Source: a bacterium (lineage in GTDB: Bacteria > Patescibacteriota > Minisyncoccia > Sungbacterales > SURF-37). From it: 64,000 nucleotides of DNA. The notes beneath the pieces are model-generated. The model was not told the DNA's origin and ran no database searches. It saw only the letters and a program-made list of their open reading frames with translations. Position 1 is the first letter of the stretch. Every line of letters starts with the position of its first letter. The stretch is taken from assembly GCA_030648055.1 (NCBI GenBank), contig JAUSHI010000009.1, forward strand, positions 47,722-111,721, in the 5' to 3' direction. Below are positions 23,568-63,470 of this stretch, one piece after another. Both the position numbers and the translations under genes were made by a program.

Positions 23568-23573
23568 ATCATT

Positions 23574-32509: not shown

Positions 32510-32546
32510 GTGGCATTATTGTATTCTTTGACGCGCGTTTTTTCAA

Positions 32547-32679: not shown

Positions 32680-32758
32680 TCAATCCTTGACCGGTTTATG
32701 GCATTGCATTAGTATTGTTTAGGAATAAGTTCGTTAAAAAATTAAATAAAGAAAGAGG

Positions 32759-48071: not shown

Positions 48072-48098
48072 CAGACGGGAAATCCCGTCTGTTTTTTC
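48071..48098 (+). terminator. Rho-independent terminator
   Basis: acagacggg-aaat-cccgtctgt followed by tttttc. Confidence 0.7.
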
Positions 48099-48124
48099 AT
48101 TGTTTGCCTTCGACGTGTCGTCGG

Positions 48125-48265
48125 AGTTGCAAACAATAGAACCCAGCCCTCTAAGCCATTGAATTACTTTGCTTCTTTGACTAAAAGCCCTTCACTTATA
48201 TTTATAAATGACACTTATTCGAACAGCATAGAGGGCTGGGTGAAGGTTTTGTAACCAAAATTTGG
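48125..48265. mobile_element. Family B MITE-like element, copy I (diverged outer TIRs; core TIR CCCAGCCCTCTA...TAGAGGGCTGGG)
   Basis: Core 48142..48240. The flanking sequence resembles the family consensus TIR extension. Confidence 0.65.
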
Positions 48266-48380
48266 AACAAATTTTGGACAAAGCCCTTCATTTGACTCAA
48301 TTATTTTTATGTAGTACAGCTAAATATATAGCAGGTTCGTTTAAAACCTCTACGGAGGAAATAAGAAAAGGAGAAAGCTC

Positions 48381-49607
48381 ATGAAACTTCATTGGGTTTT
48401 CGTTATCGTTTTTGCGTTTCTTGTCGTTTCTCTTGGTACGGTTATGGCGCCGGTTACGGTCCATTCGGCGGAGCCTACTGGCGAAGAGGTAAACACTATC
48501 AAGGCAGAGATGATGACGTTCGCTGAAATTCTTTACTACTACGCCACAGAAGCGCTTGAAAAGCCCGCGGACCTCAAGGCCTGTGCCTATGAGATGCTTC
48601 GCATGAAGCCCGCGGAGCAGAAGAGTTGCCGTGACAAGTATTCGGTTTGGTATCCGAAGGAAGAGGTTGAAATGGTTGAGGCAGACATGGAGGGAAAGTT
48701 TGGCGGCATCGGCGCGGAGCTTACTGACAAGGACGGAAAAGTTGTGGTCGTGGCTCCCATTGACGGCACGCCGGCATTTCGCGCAGGTTTGAAGCCCGGG
48801 GACGAAATTCTTGAAGTTGATGGCGTTAAGGTTGAGAGTGTGTCTGGTGCGGTAAAGCGCGTTCGCGGGAAGATCGGAACATCAGTTGAGATAAAAGTTA
48901 GGCGCGATGGGAAGAACGACACGATCGTTTTCACAATCGTTCGTGCCGAGATCGTCATTCAGGCGGTTGAGATGAAAGTGCTTCACGGCGCGAATGGAGA
49001 GGCGGGGTATCTTCGCGTGAAGACCTTCAGCGAAGTGATGCCCGATGAGTTTCACAAAGAGATGACGAAACTTCGTGATTCCGGTATTACCAAGGTTGTT
49101 CTTGATTTTCGTGGTAATCCCGGTGGGTTTCTTAATGTAGCATTAGATATTCTTTACGATTTTGCGCGTGAAAGCGATACTTTGATGGTCATGCGCGAGC
49201 GCGATGAGGAAACGGTGTTTGATGCTCTGTCTGTGGGGCGCGCGGTTTTGAAAACCGAGCGCAAACGCACACATGGAATGTTTCTCGGTATGGCGGTTGT
49301 GATTCTCGTGAACAAAGGGAGCGCTTCTGCCTCGGAGGTCTTCGCCGGGACCATGAAGGATTGGGGGTATCCGGTGATTGGCACGAATACTTTCGGCAAG
49401 GGGATTGGACAAACGCATCTTCCGCTTTCCGATGGTTCGGTTTTGAGTCTGACCACTTTTGAGTTCCTGGTCGGCAACTCCAGGACTAAGATTCACGGCA
49501 TCGGTGTTATTCCGACTCATAGTGTTGTCGGGCCGAGGCCAGCCACTTCCGAAATTCTTCGTGAAGACAAACAGCTTGAAAAAGCGCTTGAATTGCTTTT
49601 CAAGTAA
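48381..49607 (+). CDS. ctpA: S41-family C-terminal processing peptidase with PDZ domain
   Basis: Signal peptide, PDZ (GIGAELTDKDGKVVVVAPIDGTPAFRAGLKPGDEIL), S41 motifs VLDFRGNPGGFL and GSASASE. Confidence 0.8.
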   Translation: MKLHWVFVIVFAFLVVSLGTVMAPVTVHSAEPTGEEVNTIKAEMMTFAEILYYYATEALEKPADLKACAYEMLRMKPAEQKSCRDKYSVWYPKEEVEMVEADMEGKFGGIGAELTDKDGKVVVVAPIDGTPAFRAGLKPGDEILEVDGVKVESVSGAVKRVRGKIGTSVEIKVRRDGKNDTIVFTIVRAEIVIQAVEMKVLHGANGEAGYLRVKTFSEVMPDEFHKEMTKLRDSGITKVVLDFRGNPGGFLNVALDILYDFARESDTLMVMRERDEETVFDALSVGRAVLKTERKRTHGMFLGMAVVILVNKGSASASEVFAGTMKDWGYPVIGTNTFGKGIGQTHLPLSDGSVLSLTTFEFLVGNSRTKIHGIGVIPTHSVVGPRPATSEILREDKQLEKALELLFK

Positions 49608-49616
49608 TAAATGATT

Positions 49617-49643
49617 CAAAAAGGCGCCAGCGCGCCTTTTTTC
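49617..49643 (+). terminator. Rho-independent terminator
   Basis: aaaaaggcgc-cagc-gcgcc followed by ttttttc. Confidence 0.65.
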
Positions 49644-49693
49644 TTTGCCAATGTTGTCTAAATTTATAAGCTGAGTTCAATGCGAGGCGCAAT

Positions 49694-49836
49694 AAATTTA
49701 GTTACAACATTGAGCACCCAGCCCTCTATGCTGTTCGAATAAGTGCAATTCATAAATATAAGTGAAGAGTTTTTAATCAAAGAAGCAAAGTAATTCAATG
49801 GCTTAGAGGGCTGGGTGAAGGTTTTGTTGCCAAAAT
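49694..49836. mobile_element. Family B MITE-like element, copy II (inverted relative to copy I; long TIRs)
   Basis: aaatttagttacaacattgagcaCCCAGCCCTCTA ... TAGAGGGCTGGGtgaaggttttgttgccaaaatt. The internal segment is the reverse complement of copy I's internal segment. Confidence 0.7.
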
Positions 49837-49845
49837 TATGCGCGC

Positions 49846-51852
49846 TTACGCGCTTTTATTTTGGACAAAGCCCCTCATTTCCTCCAAAGTTTCGTTCAGC
49901 ATTTGGCAGTATAAATTGAAGCCGACTTTGTTGATCGCACCCGATTGTTCGCGGCCGAGAATATTCCCAGCACCCCGGATTTCAAGATCTCTTAACGCGA
50001 TTTCATATCCCGAGCCGAGTTCCGAAAATTCCTGAAGAGCGGTGAGCCGGGCAAGGGCTTTTTCGGTGAGGCTAGCCCGGGCGCCGGTCGCCCTAGGGTT
50101 TTGCGATCGATAAAGGAAATAAGAATAAGCTTGCCTGTCGCCCCGGCCGATCCTGCCTCGCAATTGGTGCGCCTGGGCAAGACCAAGTTTTGTCGCGTCT
50201 TCAACGATGAGTGTGTTTACGTTTGAAAAATCAAGCCCGTTTTCAATGATGGTCGTGGCCAGGAGCATGTCAAATTTTTTATTGCGGAATTCATTCATTA
50301 CCGAGAGCATTTCTTGTTCCGGCATTCTTCCGTGTATTATGCGGATTTTTACTTGCGGAAGAAGTTTGGCAAGTTTTTCTTTGAAAAGGCCCATGGTCTC
50401 TACGCGGTTATGCAGAAAATAGATCTGTCCGCCTCTTGCCAGCTCCTCATTAACGGCTCCGCGGATAATTTTTTGTGAATAGGGCAGTACTATGGTTTTT
50501 ATGGCGATTCTCCCGGGTGGCGGCGTTTCTATTACAGATATGTCCCGGAGGCGCGTTAAGGCCAAAGAAAGAGTCCGCGGTATCGGGGTTGCCGAAAGCG
50601 AGATAATATCAACTTCTCCGCGCATTTCTTTGAAGCGTTCTTTTTGTTTGACTCCGAATTTTTGTTCTTCATCAATTATGGCGAGTCCCAGATTGGCGAA
50701 ATTTATATCTTTTGAAATTAGGCGGTGGGTTCCGATGACTATGTCAATTTTTCCCGAAGAAATTTTGGAAAGAATTTCCTTTTCTTCTTTTTTGGGAGTA
50801 AGCCGTGAAAGGAGGGCTATTGTCACTCCGGTCTCGCTGAAGCGCTCGGTAAAATTCCTAAGATGCTGATCGGCGAGAATAGTGGTCGGGCTTATGAGGG
50901 CGACTTGTTTTCCTGTGGCAACCGCGCGAAAAGCCGCGCGCATGGCAATCTCCGTTTTCCCGAAGCCGACGTCTCCGCAGATAATTCTATCCATCGGTCT
51001 TTTTTTAAGCATGTCGTCTTTAACGTCGTCAGTTGCTTTACGCTGGTCCGCTGTTTCATTAAACGCGAAATTTTCTTCAAATTCCTTTTGAAAGCCCTCG
51101 TTGTCCTGATACGGAGGGCGCGTGGAGAGAGCTCGTTTTTTATAAAGCTCCAGGAGTTCACGCGCCAAAATTTCAGTTGATTCTTTTACTTTTCTTCTTG
51201 TTGTAAACCAAACTGTTCCACCGAGGCGGTGTACGCTCGGCGTTTCAAAGCCGATGTATGGCGAGAGTTTTTTGGCCTGCTCTCTCGGGACAAGCAGGCG
51301 GTCGGGTTCGGTCCTGTTTTTGGGCGGGGCGTATTCCAGCAAAAAATATTCTTTGCCGTTTTCTTTTATTTTTCCGCGGTATATTCCGATACCATGGTCA
51401 AGATGAACCATAAAACTGTTTGGCAGAGTTTTTTCAAGCGACATTCTGAATGAAATCTTCGGCCCCGTTGTTGCCGATTCGCGCTCAAAAATTTTTATGG
51501 TTTCAATAGTGTTTCCGAAAAATTCAATTCTGAAGGGTGATGGTGAGTTTATCGGCCATACTTCAAGGATATTCCCCTGCCAGAGGAATTCTCCCCGGCC
51601 GAAAATTTTTCCGGTTTTTTCATAACCAAAATCAACAAGGTGTCTTAAAACTTGCGACGGCTTGATTGTTTGGCCTTTTTCAAGGAATAACGCCGAATCT
51701 TTCCACGTGTCGGAGGTTTCTTTGGCCTTTTTGATTTGTGATAAGTTTTCCGAAAACCATGAAAACCCCCGTTCTAAAAATTGGGGGGTGATGCGAACTA
51801 TTAAAATTTCTTTTAATTCATTCGGCACGCGGAGCATTTTACGCTCATTCAT
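49846..51852 (-). CDS. mfd: Transcription-repair coupling factor Mfd, minimal form (RNAP-interaction region plus translocase; lacks UvrB-homology N-module and C-terminal D7)
   Basis: Walker A GDVGFGKTEIAMRAAF, helicase motifs, and the TRG motif LRDLEIRGAGNILGREQSG. It is only 668 aa, against about 1150 aa for canonical Mfd. Confidence 0.75.
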   Translation of the reverse strand: MNERKMLRVPNELKEILIVRITPQFLERGFSWFSENLSQIKKAKETSDTWKDSALFLEKGQTIKPSQVLRHLVDFGYEKTGKIFGRGEFLWQGNILEVWPINSPSPFRIEFFGNTIETIKIFERESATTGPKISFRMSLEKTLPNSFMVHLDHGIGIYRGKIKENGKEYFLLEYAPPKNRTEPDRLLVPREQAKKLSPYIGFETPSVHRLGGTVWFTTRRKVKESTEILARELLELYKKRALSTRPPYQDNEGFQKEFEENFAFNETADQRKATDDVKDDMLKKRPMDRIICGDVGFGKTEIAMRAAFRAVATGKQVALISPTTILADQHLRNFTERFSETGVTIALLSRLTPKKEEKEILSKISSGKIDIVIGTHRLISKDINFANLGLAIIDEEQKFGVKQKERFKEMRGEVDIISLSATPIPRTLSLALTRLRDISVIETPPPGRIAIKTIVLPYSQKIIRGAVNEELARGGQIYFLHNRVETMGLFKEKLAKLLPQVKIRIIHGRMPEQEMLSVMNEFRNKKFDMLLATTIIENGLDFSNVNTLIVEDATKLGLAQAHQLRGRIGRGDRQAYSYFLYRSQNPRATGARASLTEKALARLTALQEFSELGSGYEIALRDLEIRGAGNILGREQSGAINKVGFNLYCQMLNETLEEMRGFVQNKSA

Positions 51853-51969
51853 GCTAACATAACGAGTGTTTTTTTTGAAAATGCGTTATTAAAATGTTTT
51901 CGGATTTATTCTAACAAATCAGATGATCGTCGGTTGTGTTAGAATAAAAAATCAATGAACTCGGCGAGT

Positions 51970-52537
51970 TTATTGTGCGTTATATGCGTTCATTATAATT
52001 TCCGGCCGGTTTTCTCTAAGTGTTTCAAGCGCGTTGGCGGTTTGTTTAATTATTTTTGCAATCGCGCGTTTTTCGTTGGGTGTGAATTTTTGCAATACTA
52101 ATTTTTCCGCTGGAACTCTCTTTTTTTTCTGGACACCTATTCTAAACCGCCAATAGGCTTCGGTTTTTAACGCGCGTTTCACTGATTCAACGCCTTTATG
52201 GCCTCCTGAACTTTTATTGAAAGAAAGTTTTGCTCTCCCAAGTTCAATATCGGAATCGTCGTGCACGATAATAACGGCGGAGGGTTTAGTTTTATAAAAA
52301 CGCGCGGCTGGTCCTACTGCGTTTCCGGATTTATTCATAAATGTTTCGGGTAGCACTAAAACCAATTTTTCCTTTCCAAGTTTTGTCTCGGCGACCAGTG
52401 CGTTCCATTTTTTGTTGAATGAAAAATCATTCGCGTTTATTTTTTTGTGGAATGCCAAAAGAACCATGCGCCCGACGTTGTGGCGCGTTTCCTCATATTC
52501 TTTTCCGGGGTTTCCCAGGCCAACTATTAAATACATG
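51970..52537 (-). CDS. pth: Peptidyl-tRNA hydrolase
   Basis: MYLIVGLGNPGKEYEETRHNVG is the canonical Pth N-terminus. The ORF-track extension to 52671 runs into the repeat element and is probably not translated. Confidence 0.85.
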
Positions 52538-52559
52538 CCAATTTTATTTGAGCGGAGCG

Positions 52560-52705
52560 AAATTATAAAATTGAGCACCCCGCCCTCTAAGTTGTAAGCG
52601 TTTTTTGTGTCCGACAAATGAAATGAGCCGGCTCTTAAAAATAATAATACTCCTATTATGTCATACGGCATAGGGGGCGGGGTTCTGGTTTTTGTTTCAA
52701 CAGTT
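52560..52705. mobile_element. Family B MITE-like element, copy III (variant core TIR CCCCGCCCTCTA...TAGGGGGCGGGG)
   Basis: ttgagcaCCCCGCCCTCTAag ... caTAGGGGGCGGGGttctggtttttg. The tail tttcgctccgctcaaataaaattggcATG ends at the pth start codon. Confidence 0.65.
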
Positions 52706-52764
52706 CTTCGCCATTTATGGCTTAAACTTTTGACAAAAACCGAAAAGTGCGCTAAAATGCGATA

Positions 52765-53316
52765 ATGGATCAGGAAACATCATTTGGAAAGAGCGTAAAA
52801 GAGTTTGTTAAATTTCTTCTTATTGCTTCCGCGATTGCTCTTCCAATACGGTATTTTATAGCACAGCCCTTTATTGTTAAGGGTGCCTCAATGGTCCCCA
52901 CGTTTGAAAACGGACAGTATTTGATTGTTGATGAAGCGACTTATTTTTTGCGTCAGCCGGCGCGCGGCGAAGTAATTGTATTTCGTTATCCGCTTGATCA
53001 GCGGCAATTTTTTATTAAACGCATAATCGGCCTTCCTGGCGAGACGGTAGAGGTAAAAGACGGTAAAGTGAAAATTGATCTTCCAAACGGGAGAGGAGAA
53101 ATGGTTTTGGACGAGCCGTATCTTCCCAAGGACTTGCGAACCGACGGAAATACAAAAGTTGCGCTTGGAATAGAAGATTATTTTGTTCTCGGCGATAATC
53201 GTTCACAGAGTTCAGACAGCAGAATGTGGGGGGTTTTGCCGAGGAGCCTGATAACCGGGCGCGCCTTAATACGGGCTTGGCCGGTTTCTGCGGCAGGTAT
53301 ATTGGTTGGTCACTAA
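52765..53316 (+). CDS. lepB: Signal peptidase I
   Basis: S26 motifs GASMVPTF (Ser) and GDNRSQSSDSRMWG, plus an N-terminal TM. Confidence 0.8.
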   Translation: MDQETSFGKSVKEFVKFLLIASAIALPIRYFIAQPFIVKGASMVPTFENGQYLIVDEATYFLRQPARGEVIVFRYPLDQRQFFIKRIIGLPGETVEVKDGKVKIDLPNGRGEMVLDEPYLPKDLRTDGNTKVALGIEDYFVLGDNRSQSSDSRMWGVLPRSLITGRALIRAWPVSAAGILVGH

Positions 53317-53545
53317 CATAGAAGGAAAAATAATTTGGACATGCCATCCCCCGCCAATTTTGGGGGGCATGCCGGGGCGAAGCGCTTCGCCCAAAAGGGT
53401 TGTCCTATTCGGACACGCGCTTCGCAAAAGTTACTCATGACATTTTTCTTCCAAATATTTGTCCAGTTGTAACGGCAAAATTGGAGGAGGATGCTCATGA
53501 TTGTAACTAAATTTTATTCGCTTGTGCTCTAAAATTTAGACAATC

Positions 53546-54967
53546 ATGGCAAAACAAAAAATAAAAGAATTTCGCTCTCCGCGCGGAACACACGATATTC
53601 TTCCCGAAGAACAGAGGTTGTGGGATAAAATCCGGCAGGAAGCGCGGGAAATTTCTCTTTTTTACGGTTTCGACAGGATTGACCCGCCGCATTTTGAGCA
53701 TACCGAACTTTTTGAATTAGGCATCGGGAGCGATACCGAAATAGTTACAAAACAAATGTATTCATTTAGAACAAGGGGTGGCGATTCTTTAACTTTGAGG
53801 CCTGAAGGTACGCCTTCAATTATGCGGGCTTTTTTTGAGCATGGCATGCTGAATCTACCCCAGCCCGTAAAGCTTTATTATTTTGGTTCGTTTTTTCGCC
53901 ACGAATCTCCTCAGCGCGGAAGGTCCCGTGAATTTAACCAATGGGGTCTTGAGCTTATCGGAGAGCAAGGCCCGGTGGCGGACGCGCAGATAATTCAGGC
54001 ACTTTTTGTTTTCTTGAAAGAGCTTGGCCTTAAAAACGCGATTATAGAAATAAATTCCATTGGCTGTGAGGTTTGCAGGCCGCGATATCGCTCGGAACTT
54101 GCCGCGTATTATCGCTCAAGAGCTAAAGGGCTTTGCAAAGATTGTAAAGAAAGATTCCGCCAGAATCCACTGCGCCTTTTGGACTGCAAAGAGGAAAAAT
54201 GCATGATTGTCCGCCAGGGAGCTCCGCAGATTTTGGACCACTTGTGCGAAAACTGTAAAACCCATTTTAAACTGCTTTTGGAATTTCTAGATGAGTCCTC
54301 GCTCCCCTATCTTTTAAATCCATATCTTGTCAGGGGGCTGGATTATTATACTCGGACTGTCTTTGAGGTTTTTGTTGGCGAAGAGGAAGAAAAAAAAGAG
54401 AAGAAGCCCGGGGTGGTGGAGGAGGCCGTTGAAGTTTCGGAAAATAAAGAAGAACCTCCGGATTTAGGTTTGGAGCAAAAAGAAAAAGAGGTAATACCCG
54501 TAAAAGAAGAAGTATCGGAAATGCCAAAGCGTCTTGCGCTTGGGGGTGGAGGTAGGTACGATAATTTGGCGGAGATTATCGGCGGTAAAATTGTTCCGGC
54601 GGTCGGCGCGGCTATGGGCATTGAACGGGTAATTCTTGCTTTAAAGATGCAAGGACATAAAATGCCCGAACCCAACAAGCCAAAAGTATTTTTTGTACAG
54701 CTTGGAGAGCTTGCTCGGAGGAAAAGTTTGCCCCTGATTGAAGAGCTAAGAAAAGCAAGGATTTCAATGGCTGAATCATTGGGTAAGGACAGTATTAAAA
54801 CGCAATTAAAAATTGCTGATAAGGTCGGGGCTGAATACGCGCTTATTTTCGGGCAGAAAGAGGCTCTGGACGGGACTATGATATTGCGCGAGATGTCATC
54901 GGGTATTCAGGAGGCCCTACCGCAGGATAAGCTTATAGAAGCGCTTAAAAAGAGATTGAGGAAGTAA
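53546..54967 (+). CDS. hisS: Histidyl-tRNA synthetase (with a Zn-ribbon insertion and an acidic KE-rich insertion)
   Basis: Class II motifs (RGTHDILPEE, LRPEGT, FRHESPQRGRSREFNQWGLE, GGGRYDNL) and an anticodon-binding C-terminus. Confidence 0.9.
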   Translation: MAKQKIKEFRSPRGTHDILPEEQRLWDKIRQEAREISLFYGFDRIDPPHFEHTELFELGIGSDTEIVTKQMYSFRTRGGDSLTLRPEGTPSIMRAFFEHGMLNLPQPVKLYYFGSFFRHESPQRGRSREFNQWGLELIGEQGPVADAQIIQALFVFLKELGLKNAIIEINSIGCEVCRPRYRSELAAYYRSRAKGLCKDCKERFRQNPLRLLDCKEEKCMIVRQGAPQILDHLCENCKTHFKLLLEFLDESSLPYLLNPYLVRGLDYYTRTVFEVFVGEEEEKKEKKPGVVEEAVEVSENKEEPPDLGLEQKEKEVIPVKEEVSEMPKRLALGGGGRYDNLAEIIGGKIVPAVGAAMGIERVILALKMQGHKMPEPNKPKVFFVQLGELARRKSLPLIEELRKARISMAESLGKDSIKTQLKIADKVGAEYALIFGQKEALDGTMILREMSSGIQEALPQDKLIEALKKRLRK

Positions 54968-55003
54968 AGGGCTTTTTCTAAAATTTGTCATTCATAGCCA
55001 CAA

Positions 55004-55173
55004 ATTTTAGCTAAAAAACCTTTACCCAGCCCCTTATGCAGTTCAAAATTAATAACAGTAAATAATGCGGTAGGTTAACATAAGAGAAAACTTAGCCCAG
55101 GCGGCTTAAGGGGCTGGGTGCTCATGTTTGTAGCTAAATTTATTTCGCTATGAGCTCATAAATTTCGACAAAC
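55004..55173 (+). mobile_element. Family B MITE-like element, copy IV (core TIR CCCAGCCCCTTA...TAAGGGGCTGGG) with a tail ending at the ATG of the HIT gene
   Basis: aaattttagctaaaaaacctttaCCCAGCCCCTTA ... TAAGGGGCTGGGtgctcatgtttgtagctaaattt + tatttcgctatgagctcataaatttcgacaaacATG. Confidence 0.7.
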
Positions 55174-55512
55174 ATGGAAGATTGTATTTTTTGCAAAATT
55201 GCCGCTAAAATTGTTTCGGCGGACATAGTTTCAGAGGATGATGAAGTAATTGTTTTCAGAGACCTTCATCCCAAAGCGCCGGTACATCTTCTGGTAGTCC
55301 CCAAAGAGCATATCCAGTCCATCGCGTACTTAAAAGAAAATCATTCCGAAATAATAGCGAAGATTATTTACCAAGCGAAGGAAAATGCCGAGAAAATTGG
55401 GTTAAAAGGATATAAATTGGTGTTTAACGTCGGGCGTGAAGGGGGCCAGGTAATTGATCACTTGCATCTTCATCTTCTCGGCGGCTGGGATAAAGCAGAG
55501 GAAGAAGCTTAA
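55174..55512 (+). CDS. HIT-family histidine triad protein
   Basis: HLHLHLLGG histidine triad. 112 aa. Confidence 0.8.
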   Translation: MEDCIFCKIAAKIVSADIVSEDDEVIVFRDLHPKAPVHLLVVPKEHIQSIAYLKENHSEIIAKIIYQAKENAEKIGLKGYKLVFNVGREGGQVIDHLHLHLLGGWDKAEEEA

Positions 55513-55571
55513 AATAGGTTGTCAGTAGAAGTTATTAAAAGCCAATAAAGCTATAAGTAATAAAAGAAAAT

Positions 55572-55829
55572 ATGGTTTACGCGATTAGAAAACAAAAAGA
55601 AACCACCGGCGCTCTTTTGCGGCGTTTTACAAAAAACGTCCAGCAATCCGGAATTCTTCTTGAGGCAAGGCGTACCCGCTTTTTTTCTAAAAAGAAGAAT
55701 AAGCGTGCGCGAAAAATCAGCGCGTTGAGGAGAATGAAGCTCGGCAAAGAGCGGGAAAAACTTATGAAGCTCGGCCGGTTAAGGCCAAAGGAAAAAAGAC
55801 CCCGCCCGACAAGAGAGCTTTCTTCGTAG
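55572..55829 (+). CDS. rpsU: 30S ribosomal protein S21
   Basis: ALRRFTKNVQQSGILLEARRTRFFSKK...RKISALRR matches the bS21 pattern, with a basic C-terminus. Confidence 0.7.
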   Translation: MVYAIRKQKETTGALLRRFTKNVQQSGILLEARRTRFFSKKKNKRARKISALRRMKLGKEREKLMKLGRLRPKEKRPRPTRELSS

Positions 55830-55874
55830 AGGTTTTTTGTGATGGGTTTTTATGCCAGGTAGTGAAAATTCGAT

Positions 55875-56336
55875 ATGGATACAAAAGAAAAAATAGCGGG
55901 CGATCTGAAAGAGGCCATGAAAAATAAGGAGGAGTTGCGTCTTTCGGTTTTAAGGATGATTTTTTCGGCTCTTCACAATAAAGAAATTGAAAAGCGGGGT
56001 AGGGGCCTGCCCGCGAAGCTTTCCGTGGAAGAAGTAGTCGCTGTATTGAGGACTGAGGTTAAAAAGCGTAAGGACTCCGTAGAAAGTTTTGAAAAAGGAG
56101 GGAGGCAGGAACTTGCCGAAAAAGAGAAGAAAGAGATTAAAATCATTGAGCCGTATTTGCCATCAGAGCTTTCAGATAGCGACTTGGAAAAAATCGTCAG
56201 TGAGGTTGTCGCGGCCGCCGGCGAGGTCACTCAAAAGGATTTTGGCAGGGTTATGGGCGAAGTTATGAAAAAAATTAAAGGCCAAGCATCGGGAGATAGG
56301 GTAAGCGCGCTTGTAAAAAAACACTTGTATAAATAA
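55875..56336 (+). CDS. yqeY: GatB/YqeY domain protein
   Basis: Helical YqeY pattern (IAGDLKEAMKNKEELRLSVLRMI...). The rpsU-yqeY adjacency is conserved. Confidence 0.7.
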   Translation: MDTKEKIAGDLKEAMKNKEELRLSVLRMIFSALHNKEIEKRGRGLPAKLSVEEVVAVLRTEVKKRKDSVESFEKGGRQELAEKEKKEIKIIEPYLPSELSDSDLEKIVSEVVAAAGEVTQKDFGRVMGEVMKKIKGQASGDRVSALVKKHLYK

Positions 56337-56374
56337 AAAAGCGCGGACTTTTGTCCGCGCGAGCGAGAAGTGTG

Positions 56375-56704
56375 TTAACCAATACCGAGAAGTTTGGCGA
56401 GTCCGCCAGCAAAGATGAGGCAAAGTAGAAGCCACGCGCCGTAGGTGAGCCACCCCGCAAGGGGGAAAAAAAGATGGAGCAATGGCCATGAGAACATAAA
56501 GACCAGTTGGTCCATTAGAAGTGTGTGTTCCCTGCAGTTATTTGGGCTTGTAATCGACCATACTATTTGCCAGAAGGTCTGCGGAACTTTGCAGAGAATG
56601 CGGTTGTGCCAATAAGTTCCGAGTGCCCACCCGATATTGAGGTATAGGGCGAGAAAAACAACATAAAGCATGCTGTATACAGGGTGGTTCCTCAAGTATT
56701 TCAT
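56375..56704 (-). CDS. Small integral membrane protein
   Basis: SD ggagg precedes the start and there are 3 predicted TM helices. Function unknown. Confidence 0.4.
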   Translation of the reverse strand: MKYLRNHPVYSMLYVVFLALYLNIGWALGTYWHNRILCKVPQTFWQIVWSITSPNNCREHTLLMDQLVFMFSWPLLHLFFPLAGWLTYGAWLLLCLIFAGGLAKLLGIG

Positions 56705-56750
56705 TCTTACCTCCAGTTAGGGGTTTTTAAAAAGCTGTCAGTGTGTTTCT

Positions 56751-57137
56751 ATGAAACAATTCGTAGCATTTAAAATAAAAGTTGTCAAGCTATTTCCGCG
56801 GACATTTCATAAAAAACTGCCAAAAAAAACCGCAATAATTGCGGTTTCAAAAAAAGAATCAAGCCTGTTTAACTGGCAGTACCGCGGGAAAAAGAAAGCC
56901 ACCAATGTTCTATCGTTTAGATATGGGTCGGATTACGGCGAGATTTTGATTTGCCCAGAGATTATCAGGCGTGAGGCGAAAAAAGCCGGAAATAATTATA
57001 ATTACCAGCTGACATGGATGATTATTCATGGTATGGTGCATTTAGCGGGCCTTCATCATGAAAAGTCGCAGCTTATACAGAAAAAAGTTGAACGGCTTGA
57101 GGAAAATCTCCTTGGAAAAATATTTGGCGCGTCTTAA
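56751..57137 (+). CDS. ybeY: rRNA maturation endoribonuclease YbeY
   Basis: Zinc motif IIHGMVHLAGLHHE (HxxxHxxHLxGxDH-like). Confidence 0.85.
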   Translation: MKQFVAFKIKVVKLFPRTFHKKLPKKTAIIAVSKKESSLFNWQYRGKKKATNVLSFRYGSDYGEILICPEIIRREAKKAGNNYNYQLTWMIIHGMVHLAGLHHEKSQLIQKKVERLEENLLGKIFGAS

Positions 57138-57149
57138 AAGGGTTAATGG

Positions 57150-58388
57150 ATGCCATTTATGAAGAGCGTTTCAATAGGCATTGACGTAGGAACTACTTTA
57201 ATCACTACGGCGGTTATAAAAAGCGACAAAACAGGAAAGCCGCGGCTTTTGGCTTTGGCAAAAACCCCGTCCAGAGGCGTCAGGAAAGGAACCGTTATTG
57301 AACCTTCAGAGCTTGCGCCCGCCATTAAAGTCTCGGTTGCCGAGGCATCTAAGATTTCGGGATTCAGGATAAAGAGCGCTGTTGTGGGTTTTAGCGGCGC
57401 GGGGGTTGCCTCGTCGCTTTCACGCGGGGTTGTTGCGATTTCTCGACCGGATGGCGAGATTACCGGCGAGGATATAAAACGCGTGATGCAGGCCGCGGAA
57501 GCTCTTCATCCTAAAAATCTAAATAGAGAGATTATTCATATGATTCCCCGCGAATATCGGGTTGACCACGAAAGAGGAATTAAAAATCCGATAGGCATGG
57601 CGGGTATGCGGCTTGAGGTTGATGCTTTGATTATTGACGCTCAAAAAACAGCTCTTCAGAATATGGTCAGGGCCTTTGATATGGCTGGGGTTGAGGTGGA
57701 GGACTGGCTTTTCTCGCCGGTCGCGGCCGCGGAGGCGGTTTTGTCTCAAAGGCAGAAAGAATTGGGTGTAATGCTTTTGGATATCGGGGGCGGCACGACG
57801 GATTACGCTATTTTTTCCGAGGGCGAGTTGGTGGACGCCGGATTGATTCCTTTAGGCGGGGAACACATAAGCCACGACATTGCCTTGGGTTTTAAAACCC
57901 ATATTGATGTCGCTGAAGCGGTGAAGTTAAGATACGGGCAGGTGGTTCCAGATGTTTTTTCAAAACGCGACGTTATAACGCTAACCGAGTTTAGCGGGGA
58001 CGATGAGTCGGTTTATTCTCAAAAAGAGCTTGCCGAAATAATTCAGGCGCGGGTTACCGACATTCTTGAACTTGCCCAGAAAGCGCTTCGGCGCGCAGGA
58101 GCTGATAATCGTCTGCCGGGCGGAGTTGTGGTTATTGGAGGTTCAGCTTTGTTTCCCGGGCTTAAGGAATTTGTTAAAAAAGAAATGCGACTCCCTGTGG
58201 AGAGGGGGGTTGTGCAAGCGATTGAACTTCCCGTCTCTCTCGGCGCAGGAATCAATGTTGCCGTTTCACTTGGTCTTGGCCTGTGGCATTTGCGTGAAGG
58301 TGGTGCATCGTCTGGTCGCTATTTTCCGCCGGTTTTTGGCAAAGCGGCATCTGGCCTTAGGTCATGGCTTAAGATGTTCCTTCCTTAG
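57150..58388 (+). CDS. ftsA: Cell division protein FtsA
   Basis: Actin-like ATPase motifs (SIGIDVGTT, LLDIGGGTTD, VIGGSALFPGL). Adjacent to ftsZ. Confidence 0.9.
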   Translation: MPFMKSVSIGIDVGTTLITTAVIKSDKTGKPRLLALAKTPSRGVRKGTVIEPSELAPAIKVSVAEASKISGFRIKSAVVGFSGAGVASSLSRGVVAISRPDGEITGEDIKRVMQAAEALHPKNLNREIIHMIPREYRVDHERGIKNPIGMAGMRLEVDALIIDAQKTALQNMVRAFDMAGVEVEDWLFSPVAAAEAVLSQRQKELGVMLLDIGGGTTDYAIFSEGELVDAGLIPLGGEHISHDIALGFKTHIDVAEAVKLRYGQVVPDVFSKRDVITLTEFSGDDESVYSQKELAEIIQARVTDILELAQKALRRAGADNRLPGGVVVIGGSALFPGLKEFVKKEMRLPVERGVVQAIELPVSLGAGINVAVSLGLGLWHLREGGASSGRYFPPVFGKAASGLRSWLKMFLP

Positions 58389-58499
58389 CAGGAATTATTA
58401 AAACACTAACCCAGATTTTGTAAAGGTTGTCTTTTAAGGACGCAGGCTTATTATAAAAGAGGAGTTCCACATTTTTAAAAATCTATAATTTTTGTAAAC

Positions 58500-59594
58500 A
58501 TGCCTCAAATAAAACCGGAAATTGAAACATTCGCGCGGATTAAAGTGGTCGGAGTTGGTGGCTCCGGCGGATCGGCGATTACTCGTATGATGGAAGCGCG
58601 GGTCCGTGGGGTTGATTTTATCGCCGTTAATTCTGATGCGCAGGCGCTTCACAACAATAAAGCCAGCCACAAGATTCATATCGGGAAGAATTTGACACGG
58701 GGGCTGGGCGCGGGTATGAACCCCGAAGTAGGCCGCCAGGCCGCTGAAGAAAATCGCGATGAATTGCACGAGAGCTTAAAAGGAGCCGACATGATTTTTA
58801 TTACCTGCGGGCTTGGCGGTGGGACCGGTTCCGGGGCCGCACCCATTGTTGCTGAAGTGGCGAAGGAATCCGGCGCCCTTACGGTCGCTGTCGTAACCAA
58901 GCCATTCGGTTTTGAAGGAAGCCAGAGGATGCGCATAGCTGATGAGGCATGGACAAAGTTAAAGGACAAAGTTGACGCTTTAATTACTATTCCAAACGAT
59001 AGAATTTTAAATGTTATTCAAAAAGACACTTCATTGGTTAAAGCTTTTGAGACATGCGATGACGTTTTAAAACACGCGGTGCAGGGCATTTCGGATTTGA
59101 TAATTATGCCAGGTCTTGTCAATGTTGACTTTGCCGATGTGCGGGCAGTGATGCAAGACGCGGGCTCGGCTCTGATGGGTGTCGGCATTGCTACGGGCGA
59201 GACGAGAGCGGTGGACGCGGCAAAGGCCGCGGTGTCCTCGCCCTTGCTTGATCTTTCAATTGACGGCGCGAAGGGTGTGCTCTTTAATGTTTCGGGTGGG
59301 TCGGATATGACTATGTGGGAAATCAACGAGGCGGCGAAAACCATCACCGAATCAGTTGATCGCGACGCGAAACTTATTTTTGGGGCTGTGCATGACGAAC
59401 GCCTTAAGAAGGGTGAAATTAAGATTACGGTTATTGCTACAGGTTTTAATGGTATGGGTAAGACTTCGGACTCAAAGAAACCGGGAGTTTTTGGGACAAC
59501 CCTTGCCAAGAGTGACGTTTCTTCGCGTATTGAGGTTAAAAGTGAGGATGATGAATGGGATTCGGTACCGGCATTCTTGCGAAGGAAAAAGTAA
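58500..59594 (+). CDS. ftsZ: Cell division GTPase FtsZ
   Basis: GVGGSGGSAI and the tubulin signature GGGTGSGAAP. Confidence 0.95.
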   Translation: MPQIKPEIETFARIKVVGVGGSGGSAITRMMEARVRGVDFIAVNSDAQALHNNKASHKIHIGKNLTRGLGAGMNPEVGRQAAEENRDELHESLKGADMIFITCGLGGGTGSGAAPIVAEVAKESGALTVAVVTKPFGFEGSQRMRIADEAWTKLKDKVDALITIPNDRILNVIQKDTSLVKAFETCDDVLKHAVQGISDLIIMPGLVNVDFADVRAVMQDAGSALMGVGIATGETRAVDAAKAAVSSPLLDLSIDGAKGVLFNVSGGSDMTMWEINEAAKTITESVDRDAKLIFGAVHDERLKKGEIKITVIATGFNGMGKTSDSKKPGVFGTTLAKSDVSSRIEVKSEDDEWDSVPAFLRRKK

Positions 59595-59662
59595 CAATTA
59601 TGATGTTTTATAAAAATGCCCATTGTGTGGGTATTTTTTGTTTTCGGCTCGGTTAAATAAAG

Positions 59663-59724
59663 AAGCGGTCAAAATGTTCCAAATAGCAAGCGACCGCTTT
59701 CTATTTGGAACATTTCAAATTTTT
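59663..59724 (+). terminator. Rho-independent terminator with two interleaved inverted repeats
   Basis: aaatgttccaaatag ... ctatttggaacattt (15-bp stems) followed by caaattttt. A second pair, aagcggtc/gaccgctt, is interleaved with it. Confidence 0.55.
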
Positions 59725-59760
59725 GTCGTTAATTTGCCTTTAAAAGTTGTGGTTTTCTGA

Positions 59761-59785
59761 AAAGAAAAAAGCCGCAAGACGCGGC
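59761..59785 (-). terminator. Rho-independent terminator for the minus-strand gene 59785..60687
   Basis: On the minus strand: gccgcg-tcttg-cggc followed by ttttttcttt. Confidence 0.5.
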
Positions 59786-60687
59786 TATTTGTTTATATTT
59801 TTCTGTTTGTTGATAATCTCCTCAAGCTTAATCTCCTCAAGTTGGGTAAGCACGTCCGGAGCAATACGCTCCAAGACCCCTCTTTCTCTCCCGTCTGTGT
59901 AGGCCCGGCTCATGTGATTGGGATAGGTGCGGGCGAATTCAAGAAGATAGCCGGCGAGCGTTATCAAGTCAGCATCTGTTGGTCCTCCTTGTTCCTCCTC
60001 TATCTGGCTGAAAAGTGGACCTCTTATTGCCCATTGAAGAGCTGAAACCACGATACTATTGTCGGGATGGTCCTTTTGTTTTACGGAAAGTTTGGTTAAA
60101 GAGGTTATGATCTTTTTTCCGTAGCGCTGCCAGTGTTCGGTTGTTATGTATGAAAGGCGACCTATATATGAAAGGCGACCGAGGGCGGTGTATCCTTCCC
60201 CGTCCCGATACCAGACACTATCTGGGTCAGTCCAGCCAGCGGATTCCAGCTCTTCTTCAATCTGAGAGAATAACGCATCAGCCACCCGATAGTCATGCGG
60301 CCTTTCCTCCGGCTTCATTAGAAAGAGGACATGGGCAAAAGTTTCAACAAGCATTTTAAGAGCGTAGCCCTTGGTCACGCCTGCCGACTTCATGGCTTCT
60401 GTAATGTTTTGGATACCGCAGTTCTGGAGTGCTACTTCAGGCACGGAAGGCACAATTTCTAGAGGCATGTTGGCCGTCTCGTTCCACGGCGTTTTAGCGT
60501 CCTTTCCACAAACCACAAGCGTGCCATCTTCGGCGAGGACTTTCGCGTAGCCGCCGCCTGATTTCAAGCGCTCGGCGCAGAGCTCTTTTGTCCGCGAAAG
60601 CGAGCGAATTTCATCGGTTGAGGCGAAACTACAAAAAGGAAAGCCAAAAAGCAGTAGCGCGATAAACGCTGGCACGGTTTTTTTCAT
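59785..60687 (-). CDS. Secreted hypothetical protein with internal duplications
   Basis: Signal peptide MKKTVPAFIALLLFGFPFCSFA. The tandem GRLSYI x2 is encoded by a perfect 18-nt tandem repeat (~60148-60183). LFSQIEEE occurs twice. Confidence 0.4.
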   Translation of the reverse strand: MKKTVPAFIALLLFGFPFCSFASTDEIRSLSRTKELCAERLKSGGGYAKVLAEDGTLVVCGKDAKTPWNETANMPLEIVPSVPEVALQNCGIQNITEAMKSAGVTKGYALKMLVETFAHVLFLMKPEERPHDYRVADALFSQIEEELESAGWTDPDSVWYRDGEGYTALGRLSYIGRLSYITTEHWQRYGKKIITSLTKLSVKQKDHPDNSIVVSALQWAIRGPLFSQIEEEQGGPTDADLITLAGYLLEFARTYPNHMSRAYTDGRERGVLERIAPDVLTQLEEIKLEEIINKQKNINK

Positions 60688-60984
60688 AGCTTCTCCTTAT
60701 TAAAGAGCAATTCCCCTTCATTATGTGTTGCAATTTTTATGCTTTTTGTCAAGCAATCTTATAACTTATCCACAAGAAATTTGATTGCGTTTTTTTTGGT
60801 GATAAGATTAAGACAACGGAAGCGTTTGAGGGAAAAAAGTTTTTAACAATCTGATATTCAATCAAAATGTTCAGGGAATTTTTACAAAAGGCCTTAAGCA
60901 TTTGCCGCATCAAGAAAATGGCGGGGTATCGCCATGTACCGAGGTGCGGATTTTTATTCGTTTGTTCGCGAGGCGTAGCCGAGC

Positions 60985-61166
60985 GATTACAAACGAATAA
61001 CCCAGCCCTCTATGCTGATTGATTGCGTAAATGCAATAATTTATGAAGAAAAAACTTGTAAAGAGTAATAAACGAAATTCGGGCGGCTTAGAGGGCTGGG
61101 TGCTCAATGTTGTAGCTAAATTCTTTCGCTCGCATTGGGCTCGCTCATAATTTAGACATCATTGGC
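60985..61166 (+). mobile_element. Family B MITE-like element, copy V, with a tail ending at the ATG of the RNR gene
   Basis: CCCAGCCCTCTAtgctg ... cttAGAGGGCTGGGtgctcaatgttgtagctaaatt + ctttcgctcgcattgggctcgctcataatttagacatcattggcATG. Confidence 0.7.
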
Positions 61167-63470
61167 ATGCCTCCAAAAATCACAATCCCATTTAAAACAG
61201 TTAGGAAGCGCGACGGCAGGATCGTGCCTTTTGACCAATCTCGTATTACAAGCGCGATTTACCGCGCCATGGGGGCCTCTTCCGAGGGTGATCTTCAGCG
61301 CGACCCGACGAGAGTTTCCGAGAGAGTTCTACGTGAACTCATAAGAAAATTTCCGGCTGGATATACTCCGGGCATTGAAGAAATTCAGGACGCGGCCGAA
61401 GAGGCGCTCATTCTTATGGATTTCCCCAAAACCGCCAAGCATTATATTTTGTACCGCTCAAAGCGGGCCGAAATTCGCGATCAGATGAAGTTGGTTCCCG
61501 AGCGCGTTAAGGATCTTGCCCGTGAAAGCAAGAAATATTTCAGGAATACCCTTTCCGAGTTTATTTATTACCGTACTTATTCGCGGTGGATTGATGAAGA
61601 GAACCGCCGGGAAACATGGATAGAGACCGTTGAGCGCTATGTCGCTTTTATGAAAGAGAACCTCGGCAATAAGTTGGACGAGGATGAATATATAGAAATC
61701 AAAAACGCTATTTTCCATCAAGAGGTCATGCCTTCAATGCGCCTGATGTGGAGCGCGGGGTCCGCGGCGCGAAAGACCAACGTCTGCGCTTACAACTGCG
61801 CGTATATTGCTCCGTCTAAAATTGAAGATTTCGCTGAAATTATGTATCTCTTGATGTGCGGAACTGGCGTTGGTTTTTCTATTGAGTCGCAGACCGTTCA
61901 GCAGCTTCCCATAATCAAACGCCAGAGTGGCAAGAAATTAAAAGATTATGTCATTGAAGACAGCAAAGAGGGCTGGGGTAACTCCTTAACACTCGGTCTT
62001 AAGACATGGTTCGGGGGCAAGGATGTAAAATTTGATTTTTCAAAATTGCGACCGGCTGGCGCGCGCCTTAAGACAATGGGCGGAAGAAGTTCCGGGCCGG
62101 AGCCGTTAAAAGCACTTTTAGAGTTTGCCAGAGTGAAAATACTTACCGCGGAAGGTAGGCGTCTTACTAACATTAATGTCCATGATATTATCTGCAAAAT
62201 CGGCGAGGTCGTGGTTATGGGCGGAGTAAGAAGATCCGCGCTTATTTCTCTTTCCGACCTTGATGACAATGAAATGCGCCTTGCTAAAACAGGCAAGTTT
62301 TATCTTACAAATCCGCAGAGAATGATGGCTAATAATTCCGCAGTTTATAATGTGAAGCCTACGACAACAAAGTTTCTTGAGGAATGGCTGGCCTTGGCGG
62401 AAAGCGGTACCGGCGAGCGCGGGATTTTTAACCGAGGTGGCCTTGAAAAGCAACTGCCGGCTCGTAGATGGAAAGTGTTCGGAAAACATGTATCCACCGC
62501 GGGTATAAACCCGTGCGGCGAAATAGTTCTTCGTTCAAAGCAGTTTTGCAATCTTACAGAGGTGGTCGCGCGCCACGAGGATACTGAGGCGACACTTTTG
62601 AAAAAAATCCGTCTGGCGACGATTATTGGCACTTATCAGTCGTTGTTGACCAACTTTCAATATATATCCAAGGAGTGGAAGAAAAACTGCGAAGAAGAGC
62701 GTTTGCTCGGCGTTTCCGTTACCGGTCAATGGGATTCGCCTGCGGTCCGGCATTCGGCAACTTTGAAAAAACTTAGAGACAAAGCGATAGCCGTAAACAA
62801 AGAATATGCGAAACGGTTTGGTATGAACGAATCAACATGCATCACCTGCGTTAAGCCCTCGGGAACGGTTTCCCAATTAGTAGATGCTTCTTCTGGAATG
62901 CATCCGCGCCATGCGCGCTATTATATTCGCCGCATCCGCATTTCGGCGACTGATCCATTGTTCCATATGATGAAAGAACAGAAATTTCCTTATCAGTCGG
63001 AAGTGGGCCAGCTTGAAAGTTCAGCCACAACTTATGTTTTGGAGTTTCCAGTTGAGGCCCCGAAGGGGGCGGTATTTAGGAACGATCTTACTGCGCTTGA
63101 ACAGCTTCAGTACTGGAAAATGGTTAAAGAAAATTATACCGAGCACAATCCTTCGGTTACGGTCTCGGTGGGGGATGACGAATGGATTGAAACCGCTAAC
63201 TGGTTGTATAAAGAATGGGAAATGCTTGGCGGTCTTTCGTTTTTGCCGAGAACCGAGCATGTTTATCAATTAGCACCTTACGAGGAAATAAACGAAGAGC
63301 AATACAAAGAGCTTTTGGCTAAAATGCCGCAGATTGATTTTTCGCATATTGTTGCCTATGAAGAAGAAGACCAGACAAGTGGCGCTAAAGAGCTTGCTTG
63401 CGTCAGCGGGGTTTGTGAGATTGATTCCGAAGAAGAGTTGTCTTCAATTAAAGTGTTTCTGCCATCCTGA
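61167..63470 (+). CDS. Class II (adenosylcobalamin-dependent) ribonucleoside-triphosphate reductase, monomeric RTPR-like
   Basis: 767 aa. Thiyl-radical loop NPCGEIVL, and a C-terminal redox pair CVSGVC (C-x4-C) as in the L. leichmannii-type RTPR. Confidence 0.7.
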   Translation: MPPKITIPFKTVRKRDGRIVPFDQSRITSAIYRAMGASSEGDLQRDPTRVSERVLRELIRKFPAGYTPGIEEIQDAAEEALILMDFPKTAKHYILYRSKRAEIRDQMKLVPERVKDLARESKKYFRNTLSEFIYYRTYSRWIDEENRRETWIETVERYVAFMKENLGNKLDEDEYIEIKNAIFHQEVMPSMRLMWSAGSAARKTNVCAYNCAYIAPSKIEDFAEIMYLLMCGTGVGFSIESQTVQQLPIIKRQSGKKLKDYVIEDSKEGWGNSLTLGLKTWFGGKDVKFDFSKLRPAGARLKTMGGRSSGPEPLKALLEFARVKILTAEGRRLTNINVHDIICKIGEVVVMGGVRRSALISLSDLDDNEMRLAKTGKFYLTNPQRMMANNSAVYNVKPTTTKFLEEWLALAESGTGERGIFNRGGLEKQLPARRWKVFGKHVSTAGINPCGEIVLRSKQFCNLTEVVARHEDTEATLLKKIRLATIIGTYQSLLTNFQYISKEWKKNCEEERLLGVSVTGQWDSPAVRHSATLKKLRDKAIAVNKEYAKRFGMNESTCITCVKPSGTVSQLVDASSGMHPRHARYYIRRIRISATDPLFHMMKEQKFPYQSEVGQLESSATTYVLEFPVEAPKGAVFRNDLTALEQLQYWKMVKENYTEHNPSVTVSVGDDEWIETANWLYKEWEMLGGLSFLPRTEHVYQLAPYEEINEEQYKELLAKMPQIDFSHIVAYEEEDQTSGAKELACVSGVCEIDSEEELSSIKVFLPS

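Follow-up and report, generated by a model that had tools for sequence, protein, structure and literature searches.

We analyzed a 64,000-nt window of contig JAUSHI010000009.1 (GenBank assembly GCA_030648055.1; Patescibacteriota, Sungbacterales), in which an initial annotation, made from the sequence alone, had described five intergenic copies of an element resembling miniature inverted-repeat transposable elements (MITEs), with ~35-bp terminal inverted repeats (TIRs) and tails that run into start codons and might supply promoters. The genes around the repeats have housekeeping functions (BT1 transporter, S41 peptidase, mfd, pth, lepB, hisS, HIT, S21, ftsA, ftsZ and nrdJ). As detailed below, each reported repeat corresponds to the core, or central hairpin, of a cassette of three hairpins (hairpin A, core, hairpin B), and the core slot of such cassettes can hold an element encoding a very small GIY-YIG nuclease.

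A search of the window for CCCAGCCCTCTA with up to two mismatches yielded 16 matches, compared to 2.7 expected by chance, a number reached in none of 100 shuffles; longer flank motifs were likewise far above chance expectation. Ten of these matches form five inward-facing CCCAGCCCTCTA/TAGAGGGCTGGG pairs between 48.1 and 61.1 kb (48142/48229, 49717/49804, 52578/52671, 55025/55107 and 61001/61089), and all five copies are indeed present where they had been placed. The arms comprise 12–13 bp and delimit cores of 94–105 bp, with interiors of 70–81 nt and no coding capacity. Two arm variants that had been noticed before are both real: copy III bears CCCCGCCC../..GGGCGGGG, with one T.G, copy IV bears CCCAGCCCCTTA/TAAGGGGCTGGG, and the changes in both are compensatory. 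The interiors of copies III, IV and V are mutually unrelated; those of copies I and II are 94% identical, yet inverted relative to directly repeated right flanks. A sixth, diverged copy is found at 53345–53545, reaching the hisS ATG. The initial 48 kb of the window are free of the repeat motifs. None of the five copies shows a target-site duplication, as their flanks (tagaa/tgaag, gagca/tgaag, gagca/ttctg, cttta/tgctc and aataa/tgctc) lack a direct repeat.

Folding of each region predicted three abutting hairpins, with z-scores of -3.0 to -5.9, arranged 5'-to-3' on the gene strand as hairpin A, core and hairpin B. Hairpin A is composed of (TA)AAGGGCTTTGTCCAAAATTT, a loop and AAATTTTGGTTACAAAACCTTTA, and frequently begins at the upstream stop codon. 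The core arms start with CCC and end with GGG; in the window, they consist of CCCAGCCCTCTA/TAGAGGGCTGGG around ~75 nt of free-drifting sequence. Hairpin B is built from TGCTCAATGTTGTAGCTAAATT, a structured loop and AAATTTAGACAACATTGGC, with the downstream ATG directly after its last base. Of the ~35-bp TIRs proposed initially, 12–13 perfect pairs persist, while the remainder represents two differing flanks, the 3' arm of A and the 5' arm of B, which are alike only in an AAATTT.G.TACAA part; the apparent long TIR thus reduces to a partial likeness of the inner arm of A to the inner arm of B. Nor are the long TIRs predicted to pair as one hairpin; the predicted folds pair each flank locally with its own partner. 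Furthermore, the tail lies outside the repeat element and forms the 3' (outer) arm of hairpin B, a distinct hairpin with strong covariation that is also found with quite different cores. The cassettes in the window are:

48098–48290, minus strand: cassette I, order A, core, B-like hairpin; no downstream gene
48241–48290, minus strand: hairpin A of cassette I, TGAAGGTTTTGTAACCAAAATTTG gaa CAAATTTTGGACAAAGCCCTTCA
48142–48240, minus strand: core of cassette I, 94% identical to the copy II core, inverted relative to the shared A flank
48098–48139, minus strand: degenerate B-like hairpin of cassette I
49647–49877, minus strand: cassette II
49816–49877, minus strand: hairpin A of cassette II, with a nested GC hairpin (49840–53); the final nine codons and the stop codon of mfd extend into it
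49717–49815, minus strand: core of cassette II
49647–49716, minus strand: hairpin B of cassette II, tail AAATTTAGACAACATTGGC, then AAAG in place of ATG
52537–52741, minus strand: cassette III
52687–52741, minus strand: hairpin A of cassette III; its outer arm provides the TTGACA of a lepB promoter-like site (52730–52758)
52578–52682, minus strand: core of cassette III, CCCCGCCCTCTA..TAGGGGGCGGGG
52537–52577, minus strand: short hairpin B of cassette III, adjoining the pth ATG at 52536
53345–53550, plus strand: cassette VI, the diverged sixth copy
53345–53493, plus strand: core-like inverted repeat of cassette VI, CATCCCCCGCCAATTTTG / CAAAATTGGAGGAGGATG, with a 113-nt interior
53491–53550, plus strand: hairpin B of cassette VI, with the hisS ATG (53546) within its 3' arm
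54968–55177, plus strand: cassette IV, the canonical stop-to-start form (hisS stop TAA at 54965–54967)
54968–55024, plus strand: hairpin A of cassette IV
55025–55118, plus strand: core of cassette IV, CCCAGCCCCTTA..TAAGGGGCTGGG
55119–55177, plus strand: hairpin B of cassette IV, with the HIT ATG (55174) within its 3' arm
60955–61166, plus strand: cassette V
60955–60999, plus strand: variant hairpin A of cassette V, TTATTCGTTTGT..ACAAACGAATAA
61001–61100, plus strand: core of cassette V
61101–61166, plus strand: hairpin B of cassette V, adjoining the nrdJ ATG at 61167

The arm type of cassette VI is also found upstream of ftsZ in another locus, L056. The tails had been described as ending exactly at a start codon, which holds for HIT (55174) and nrdJ (61167); the pth ATG is located at 52536, not 52537. 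Copy II has the tail (49647–49665, minus strand) without a gene behind it, as had been noted, and AAAG followed by the terminator of the S41 gene is found instead. The genes that start at a cassette or lie between two of them are:

51970–52536, minus strand: pth, peptidyl-tRNA hydrolase (Pfam PF01195, E = 2.8e-54), starting at the B tail of cassette III
53546–54967, plus strand: hisS, histidyl-tRNA synthetase, between cassettes VI and IV
55174–55512, plus strand: HIT-family gene (PF01230), starting at the B tail of cassette IV
61167–63470, plus strand: nrdJ-like ribonucleotide reductase (ATP-cone, RNR_Alpha and RNR-II insertion domain), starting at the B tail of cassette V

The fusion of tails to start codons is real and general. 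A metagenome scan with the exact 25-nt inner (5') arm of B identified 64 contigs, most of which derive from groundwater and sediment; these represent 55 non-redundant cases, 49 of which have a complete tail. In 46 of these 49, an ATG immediately follows the final GGC of B and opens one of a diverse set of housekeeping open reading frames (ORFs), often ribosomal protein, ftsZ, dnaJ, adk, pilB/C or alaS. At the opposite end, 18 of the 25 recognizable A hairpins abut or overlap the stop codon of an ORF of 60 codons or more, including the hisS TAA of the window. As B ends at the ATG and A starts at the stop codon, the cassette often constitutes the entire intercistronic spacer.

We aligned 32 B hairpins of the 28–30-nt loop class, which form a long interrupted helix. 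Across this alignment, 97.7% of the cells are paired and eight pairs exhibit double compensatory changes, values not reached in any of 500 shuffles. The TATAAA/CATAAT letters, interpreted initially as a -10 box, constitute the 3' strand of the second helix of B, in which two pairs show seven double compensatory changes each. The letters themselves are not conserved, with CGCAAA, CGAAAA or TGCAAA in other members, and they shift to GCAAA, GGAAA or GAAAA along with the partner strand. Because the box covaries as one strand of a stem, a function as a promoter -10 element is unlikely, and a promoter in the tail was rejected on this ground. In addition, 29 of the 32 hairpins retain a U.G wobble on the gene strand, and at the base of the B helix, the A and U of the start codon are paired. 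The covariation and the wobble argue for a folded single strand in sense orientation being maintained, rather than a conserved promoter. Given the stem and the lack of an excess of promoter-like matches in the region (24 found vs. 17.3 ± 3.8 expected), the suggestion that the elements supply promoters is not supported. One match is strong (11 of 12 positions), the lepB site TTGACA-17-TAAAAT located 6 nt before the ATG, part of which is contributed by the outer arm of the copy III hairpin A; a relative without the element (see below) retains a promoter with the same spacing.

The B loop may itself be a site of insertion. Extra small hairpins, such as CCCAGCACTCAAAATTTTGAGTGCTGGG, are nested in it in L068, L076, L122, L117 and L110, expanding the loop from 29 to 71–100 nt, and insertion into hairpin tips therefore seems to be recurrent.

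The window HisRS is 100% identical to a protein encoded on a 245-kb contig of an NCBI MAG, and its next best match (81%) belongs to Candidatus Sungiibacteriota, which places the window in a Patescibacteria genome of the Parcubacteria type. The closest relative that we found, a Candidatus Sungiibacteriota genome with a HisRS 81% identical, has the same gene order and short spacers (pth-lepB, 91 nt; lepB-hisS, 6 nt; hisS-HIT, 83 nt), none of which contains an element. The elements thus represent insertions or deletions and not conserved regulatory regions, and the cassettes are dispensable, the same spacers being empty in the closest relative.

Cassettes mislead ORF callers: the pth ORF call is lengthened by 45 codons through copy III. 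The TATAAA-like box, in turn, gives annotators no basis for a promoter call. In a Portnoybacteria metagenome-assembled genome (MAG; L015:6162–7708), three nearly identical ~198-nt cassettes stand ahead of consecutive type IV pilus genes, and ORF calling through hairpin B endows two adjacent genes with the same spurious N-terminus, MELQNFDKM. Many gene starts in the window show a -10-like box 6–11 nt ahead of the ATG and no Shine-Dalgarno sequence, suggesting that leaderless or near-leaderless transcripts may be widespread in the host; the gene block at 38–48 kb differs in having strong GGAGG sites.

To look beyond the window, as had been proposed for the elements, we scanned one genome per species for arm pairs separated by a 60–90-nt gap, and obtained 53 loci. 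About 45 of them belong to the same core family, with cores of 94–103 bp and interiors that begin with TGC and end with GCT, or the reverse complement. Their MAGs are labeled as Saccharibacteria, several Parcubacteria groups, Omnitrophota, Elusimicrobia and others, although some labels may be binning errors. The same A and B flanks recur around the core in many family loci from other Patescibacteria MAGs, and the one other available contig of the window organism (L001) has copy IV oriented as in the window. The remaining loci of the scan represent an unrelated palindrome type of Bacteroidota (Mucilaginibacter and others) with a chance resemblance to the search pattern, and were set aside. This palindrome reads GCCC-CCCAGCCCCCTA-AAGGGGGAG ... 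CTCCCCCTT-TAGGGGGCTGGG-GGGC and occurs in L003, L013, L019, L021–L023, L038, L041, L042, L046, L048, L051, L053 and L054.

One member of the core family (CCCCGCCCTCTA, 72 nt, TAGAGGGCGGGG) lies inside a 23S rRNA gene (L028:3567–3662; Wildermuthbacteria MAG, JBBIKX010000008.1), where it replaces helix 63, at the helix tip, without A or B hairpins. Its occurrence alone at this position indicates that the core is a unit in its own right. The rRNA genes of these bacteria have been reported to contain non-intron insertions encoding GIY-YIG proteins as well as short, ORF-less insertions at the tips of stem-loops (PMC11270868). The helix 63 member resembles these insertions and the RNase III-cleaved intervening sequences of 23S rRNA; the copies in the window, in contrast, are located between protein genes, and inverted arms, A/B hairpins or a deletion series are not described in that study (PMC11270868). 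The 23S rRNA gene of L028 spans 3967 nt, compared to 2925 positions in the model, and so holds additional insertions.

Six members from different MAGs (L007, L016, L030, L032, L028:299–396 and L036) have a conserved outer context of their own, in which GCCTAACGG..GGATAAAAGAAG precedes the core and TTTGGG-hairpin-CTTTTATCCGCTGTTAGGC follows it, the whole folding as a three-way junction; three of the six interiors have ACTTTCATTATGAAATCTT in common. A conserved RNA gene around these members (GCCTAACGG..GGATAAAAGAAG, core, TTTGGG..CTTTTATCC) was considered, but Rfam gave no match, and their outer context is probably another type of flanking hairpin.

Several other identities were likewise examined. 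At the gathering score, a tRNA-Leu was the sole Rfam match in the window, with none over family members in 13 other loci, and at E values of up to 5 nothing was found over the elements between 47.9 and 61.4 kb; reclassification as a known RNA family, which the initial annotation had envisaged, does not apply. A literature search for the 12-mers returned unrelated eukaryotic primers only. Viral contigs gave no match, and carriage by phages was rejected. Small peptide genes in the interiors were dismissed as well, as the ORFs that start from the arm-junction ATG have 1–20 codons and are not conserved. Finally, clustering of the ORFs from 45 loci revealed housekeeping families only and no neighboring transposase.

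A census of the core slot in 53 non-redundant cassettes revealed what can occupy it. In 51 of them, the slot is bounded by inverted ends of 11–28 nt of the form CCC../..GGG, belonging to at least 19 unrelated arm families, and the cores fall into size classes of 35–70, 93–111, 144–172 and 258–298 bp. Nine sampled cassettes (L085, L087, L094, L121, L111, L124, L126, L128 and L129, some found through protein homologues) have a ~260–300-bp element in the slot, in which inverted arms surround a gene for a GIY-YIG nuclease of 74–88 aa. The four of these ORFs that were scanned match Pfam PF01541 over nearly the full length (E = 6e-11 to 6e-13). The start and stop codons of the nuclease are found at, or within, the left and right arms, respectively, and the ORF reads toward B in every case; at all nine loci, the gene is bracketed by hairpin A and the left arm upstream and by the right arm and hairpin B downstream. 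Moreover, the 107-bp cores of L103 and L108 correspond to the 295-bp element of L087 less an internal 188 bp. Cores of ~100 bp can thus be clean internal deletions of nuclease-encoding elements, a classic origin of non-autonomous elements. The window organism itself carries one GIY-YIG gene, P0146 (75 aa), on the same 245,087-nt NCBI contig; we read its sequence from a Logan contig belonging to the same run, and the organism is present in run SRR13727527. The gene resides in an A-core-B cassette with arms CCCAACACATAACTTTATG / CGTAAAGTTATGTGCTGGG, which begin with CCCA.C and end with GCTGGG and differ from those in the window.

Based on these results, we suggest that the window cores are relics of a very small GIY-YIG mobile element within a modular three-hairpin cassette common in Patescibacteria, a reading to which we assign a probability of roughly 0.58. 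A full-length parent with the window arms would fit the pattern CCCAGCCCTCTATGN{200,270}TAGAGGGCTGGG. As no such parent with CCCAGCCCTCTA arms was found, the link of the window family to a nuclease is by analogy, and several points suggest that its arm family may derive from nuclease-bearing elements. The window family occupies the same slot as the nuclease elements, its outer ends (CCCAGC..GCTGGG) are the same as those of the nuclease-bearing family in this genome, and its cores fall into the ~100-bp size class of the proven deletion derivatives. In addition, a nearly universal T.T mismatch follows the 12-bp stem, the two sides of which read CTCT-ATG-C and GCT-TAG-AGGG; judging from these letters, the mismatch would be the remains of a start and a stop codon.

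In the scenario we favor, the window cores would be non-autonomous relics of nuclease-encoding elements. The GIY-YIG nuclease would recognize the arms folded as single-stranded DNA and propagate the cores in trans, and the cores would insert at A/B junctions or hairpin tips in either orientation; short cores do occur in both orientations relative to A/B (10 vs. 9). In compact genomes, insertions might survive only where they restore the stop and start codons and fold neatly. The cassettes may also affect expression, in that the tightly folded intercistronic RNA, perhaps a processing site, could leave or free the AUG at the foot of B.

Several observations weigh against this origin of the window cores. 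Neither the 45 family loci nor the window nor the sampled nuclease homologues yielded a full-length element with CCCAGCCCTCTA arms; the search for it took in 213 retrieved homologues, four of which were followed to their contigs (three chosen for starting with MH), all with other arm families. All six copies in the window lie within 13 kb, with none in the remaining 48 kb, a clustering that is not accounted for. The copies combine unrelated interiors with near-perfect or compensated arms, beyond what a decaying selfish relic would predict, and this state of the arms points to selection or arm-to-arm correction, which the model leaves unexplained. The published SRM sequence of the related Ssn system introduced below (HGTCWY..YYVSBRH..WNVSBRG..RNCYNB) has no match on either strand of the window, compared to 0.3 in shuffles. 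The best match of the nuclease to a solved structure is UPF0213 BH0048 (E = 3e-5), with the match confined to the 32 N-terminal residues, and not a named Ssn protein. Lastly, because an exact 25-nt B arm served as the query of the metagenome scan, the resulting sample over-represents one B type.

The closest known system is that of the Ssn GIY-YIG nucleases, which cut hairpin repeats (NTS) as single-stranded DNA and whose genes are flanked by repeats (Chenal et al. 2025, PMC11893778). As in that system, the nucleases described here are very small, single-domain GIY-YIG proteins (74–88 aa, compared to 94 aa for Neisseria SsnA; PMC11893778), their genes are bracketed on both sides by hairpin-forming repeats, hairpins are also scattered through the genome without a gene (six gene-less cassettes in the window), and the stems begin with CCC and finish with GGG. 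Unlike in Ssn, however, the gene lies inside one long hairpin, the 11–28-nt arms of which overlap its start and stop codons, nested between two conserved hairpins; the repeats have a relic interior of 70–110 nt, whereas Ssn hairpins comprise 28–30 nt; and the cassette spans from a stop codon to a start codon.

Of the alternatives, we considered that the cassette is mainly an RNA element of the host, a stop-to-start intercistronic module of three stacked hairpins that is transcribed within operons as a processing site, a stabilizer or a translation-start device for genes without a Shine-Dalgarno sequence, with the nuclease genes being later squatters in the central loop. The exact fit of the cassette boundaries to stop and start codons and their consistent orientation with the genes agree with this idea, as do the strong covariation of B with its conserved gene-strand U.G wobble, the pairing of the A and U of the AUG at the B foot, the many window genes with very short leaders that lack a Shine-Dalgarno sequence, and the presence of cassettes within ribosomal-protein and cell-division operons. 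However, orthologous spacers do not retain the cassette, those of the closest relative measuring 6–91 nt, and ftsZ is preceded by a cassette in L056 but not in the window. The genes behind the cassettes represent every functional class, the orphan cassettes I and II have no downstream gene, and no Rfam family was found; moreover, a stable helix ending at position -1 would be expected to hinder, not help, ribosome loading. We therefore regard a primarily host-encoded RNA function as unlikely.

The view of the initial annotation, that the elements are classical MITEs on whose 12-bp TIRs a DDE transposase acts, with the tails as outward promoters, is in part borne out: the core behaves as a small non-autonomous mobile element, being absent from the spacers of the relative, present in many genomes and in both orientations, and paralleled by deletion derivatives in sister families. 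Short perfect inverted ends, small size, several non-coding copies, the 94% identity of copies I and II, and outward-facing -35-like TTGACA/TAGACA boxes in the outer arms, one of them in the 11-of-12 lepB promoter match, would also be in line with classical MITEs. What does not fit is that the inverted-repeat element does not include the tail, that none of the five copies shows a target-site duplication, and that no transposase is encoded in the loci next to 45 family members. In addition, no parent with CCCAGCCCTCTA ends was found, and the parents found, in sister families, encode a GIY-YIG protein and not a classical DDE transposase. As the TATAAA box covaries as a stem and promoter-like matches (24 vs. 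17.3 ± 3.8 expected) are not in excess, the promoter part of this view fails as well, and as a whole we consider it quite improbable. The Correia elements of Neisseria and similar bacterial MITEs are likewise intergenic inverted-repeat elements of ~100–150 bp that form hairpins in mRNA, can add promoter boxes and vary in presence between close relatives. In Correia elements, the TIRs are 26 bp long and a TA target is duplicated; the elements described here, in contrast, show 12-bp arms and no duplication, and the parents found encode a nuclease.

The opposite orientation of the shared interiors of copies I and II relative to homologous flanks, and the about equal orientations relative to A/B across genomes, could also be explained by invertible DNA switches, in which a site-specific recombinase flips the 75-nt interior between the 12-bp repeats to toggle a nearby gene. 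However, the interiors are unrelated between copies and contain no conserved promoter, nor a promoter match above chance, no recombinase was seen among the window ORFs inspected or in neighboring loci, nuclease genes in the same slot always point one way, and L001 and the window agree in the orientation of copy IV. Such switches are thus highly improbable here.

Systems of repetitive extragenic palindromes (REPs) or bacterial interspersed mosaic elements (BIMEs) mobilized by REP-associated tyrosine transposases (RAYTs) share with the present elements intergenic palindromic units that form mosaics, often within operons, an enzyme gene flanked by inverted repeat copies, and compensatory evolution that keeps the stems; the authors of the Ssn study noted a likeness of Ssn to REP/RAYT and to insertion sequences, too (PMC11893778). 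The units described here are longer and nested, the cassettes abut coding sequences exactly, and the enzyme is a GIY-YIG protein and not a Y1 (HUH) transposase. That a RAYT encoded elsewhere in the genome mobilizes the palindromic units is considered very unlikely despite their mosaic arrangement, a conserved GTAGC in the 5' arm of B and the further hairpins nested in loops (L068, L117), as no Y1 (HUH) transposase gene was seen in the loci examined (in the window organism's own genome, 64 kb plus 15 kb around P0146) and the gene between the arms encodes a GIY-YIG protein in nine cases.

If the window cores are indeed GIY-YIG element relics, they would explain concretely where the abundant, unannotated intergenic hairpins of the reduced Patescibacteria genomes come from, the parent elements may be among the smallest gene-carrying mobile units known, and the association of GIY-YIG nucleases with hairpin repeats, recently discovered for Ssn, would extend, in a different architecture, to a major lineage of uncultured bacteria. 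As a tentative extension, which we consider possible but not probable, an undescribed minimal mobile element, consisting of a ~225–265-bp GIY-YIG gene with 11–28-bp arms over its start and stop codons, would leave relic cassettes that act from stop to start as an RNA processing or re-initiation device, keeping genes expressed across a 200–300-nt insertion. The stop-to-start placement raises the question of how genes without a Shine-Dalgarno sequence are translated directly behind a stable helix.

The window contains further repeats that are distinct from the cassettes. A segment of ~130 nt occurs twice, in inverted orientation, 30 kb apart (3948–4095 and 34290–34424; 78% identical), with a GC-rich hairpin in each copy and both copies in poorly coding stretches, and might represent a further repeat family or a small RNA. 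A 47-nt unit (TATCATTGTGTATAACACATTTGCCAAGACGCTGAAAATAGTTGTAT) is present in two tandem copies (23567–23660; 96% identical) between the divergent genes 22692–23567 (minus strand) and 23695–25149 (plus strand). Finally, an unrelated inverted repeat at 32546–32680, also between divergent genes, consists of two 23-nt arms (ACCCCGTAGTAGAACGCGGCATA and its complement, with 91% complementarity) that enclose 89 nt, and thus has a core-like geometry with a different sequence and without A or B hairpins.

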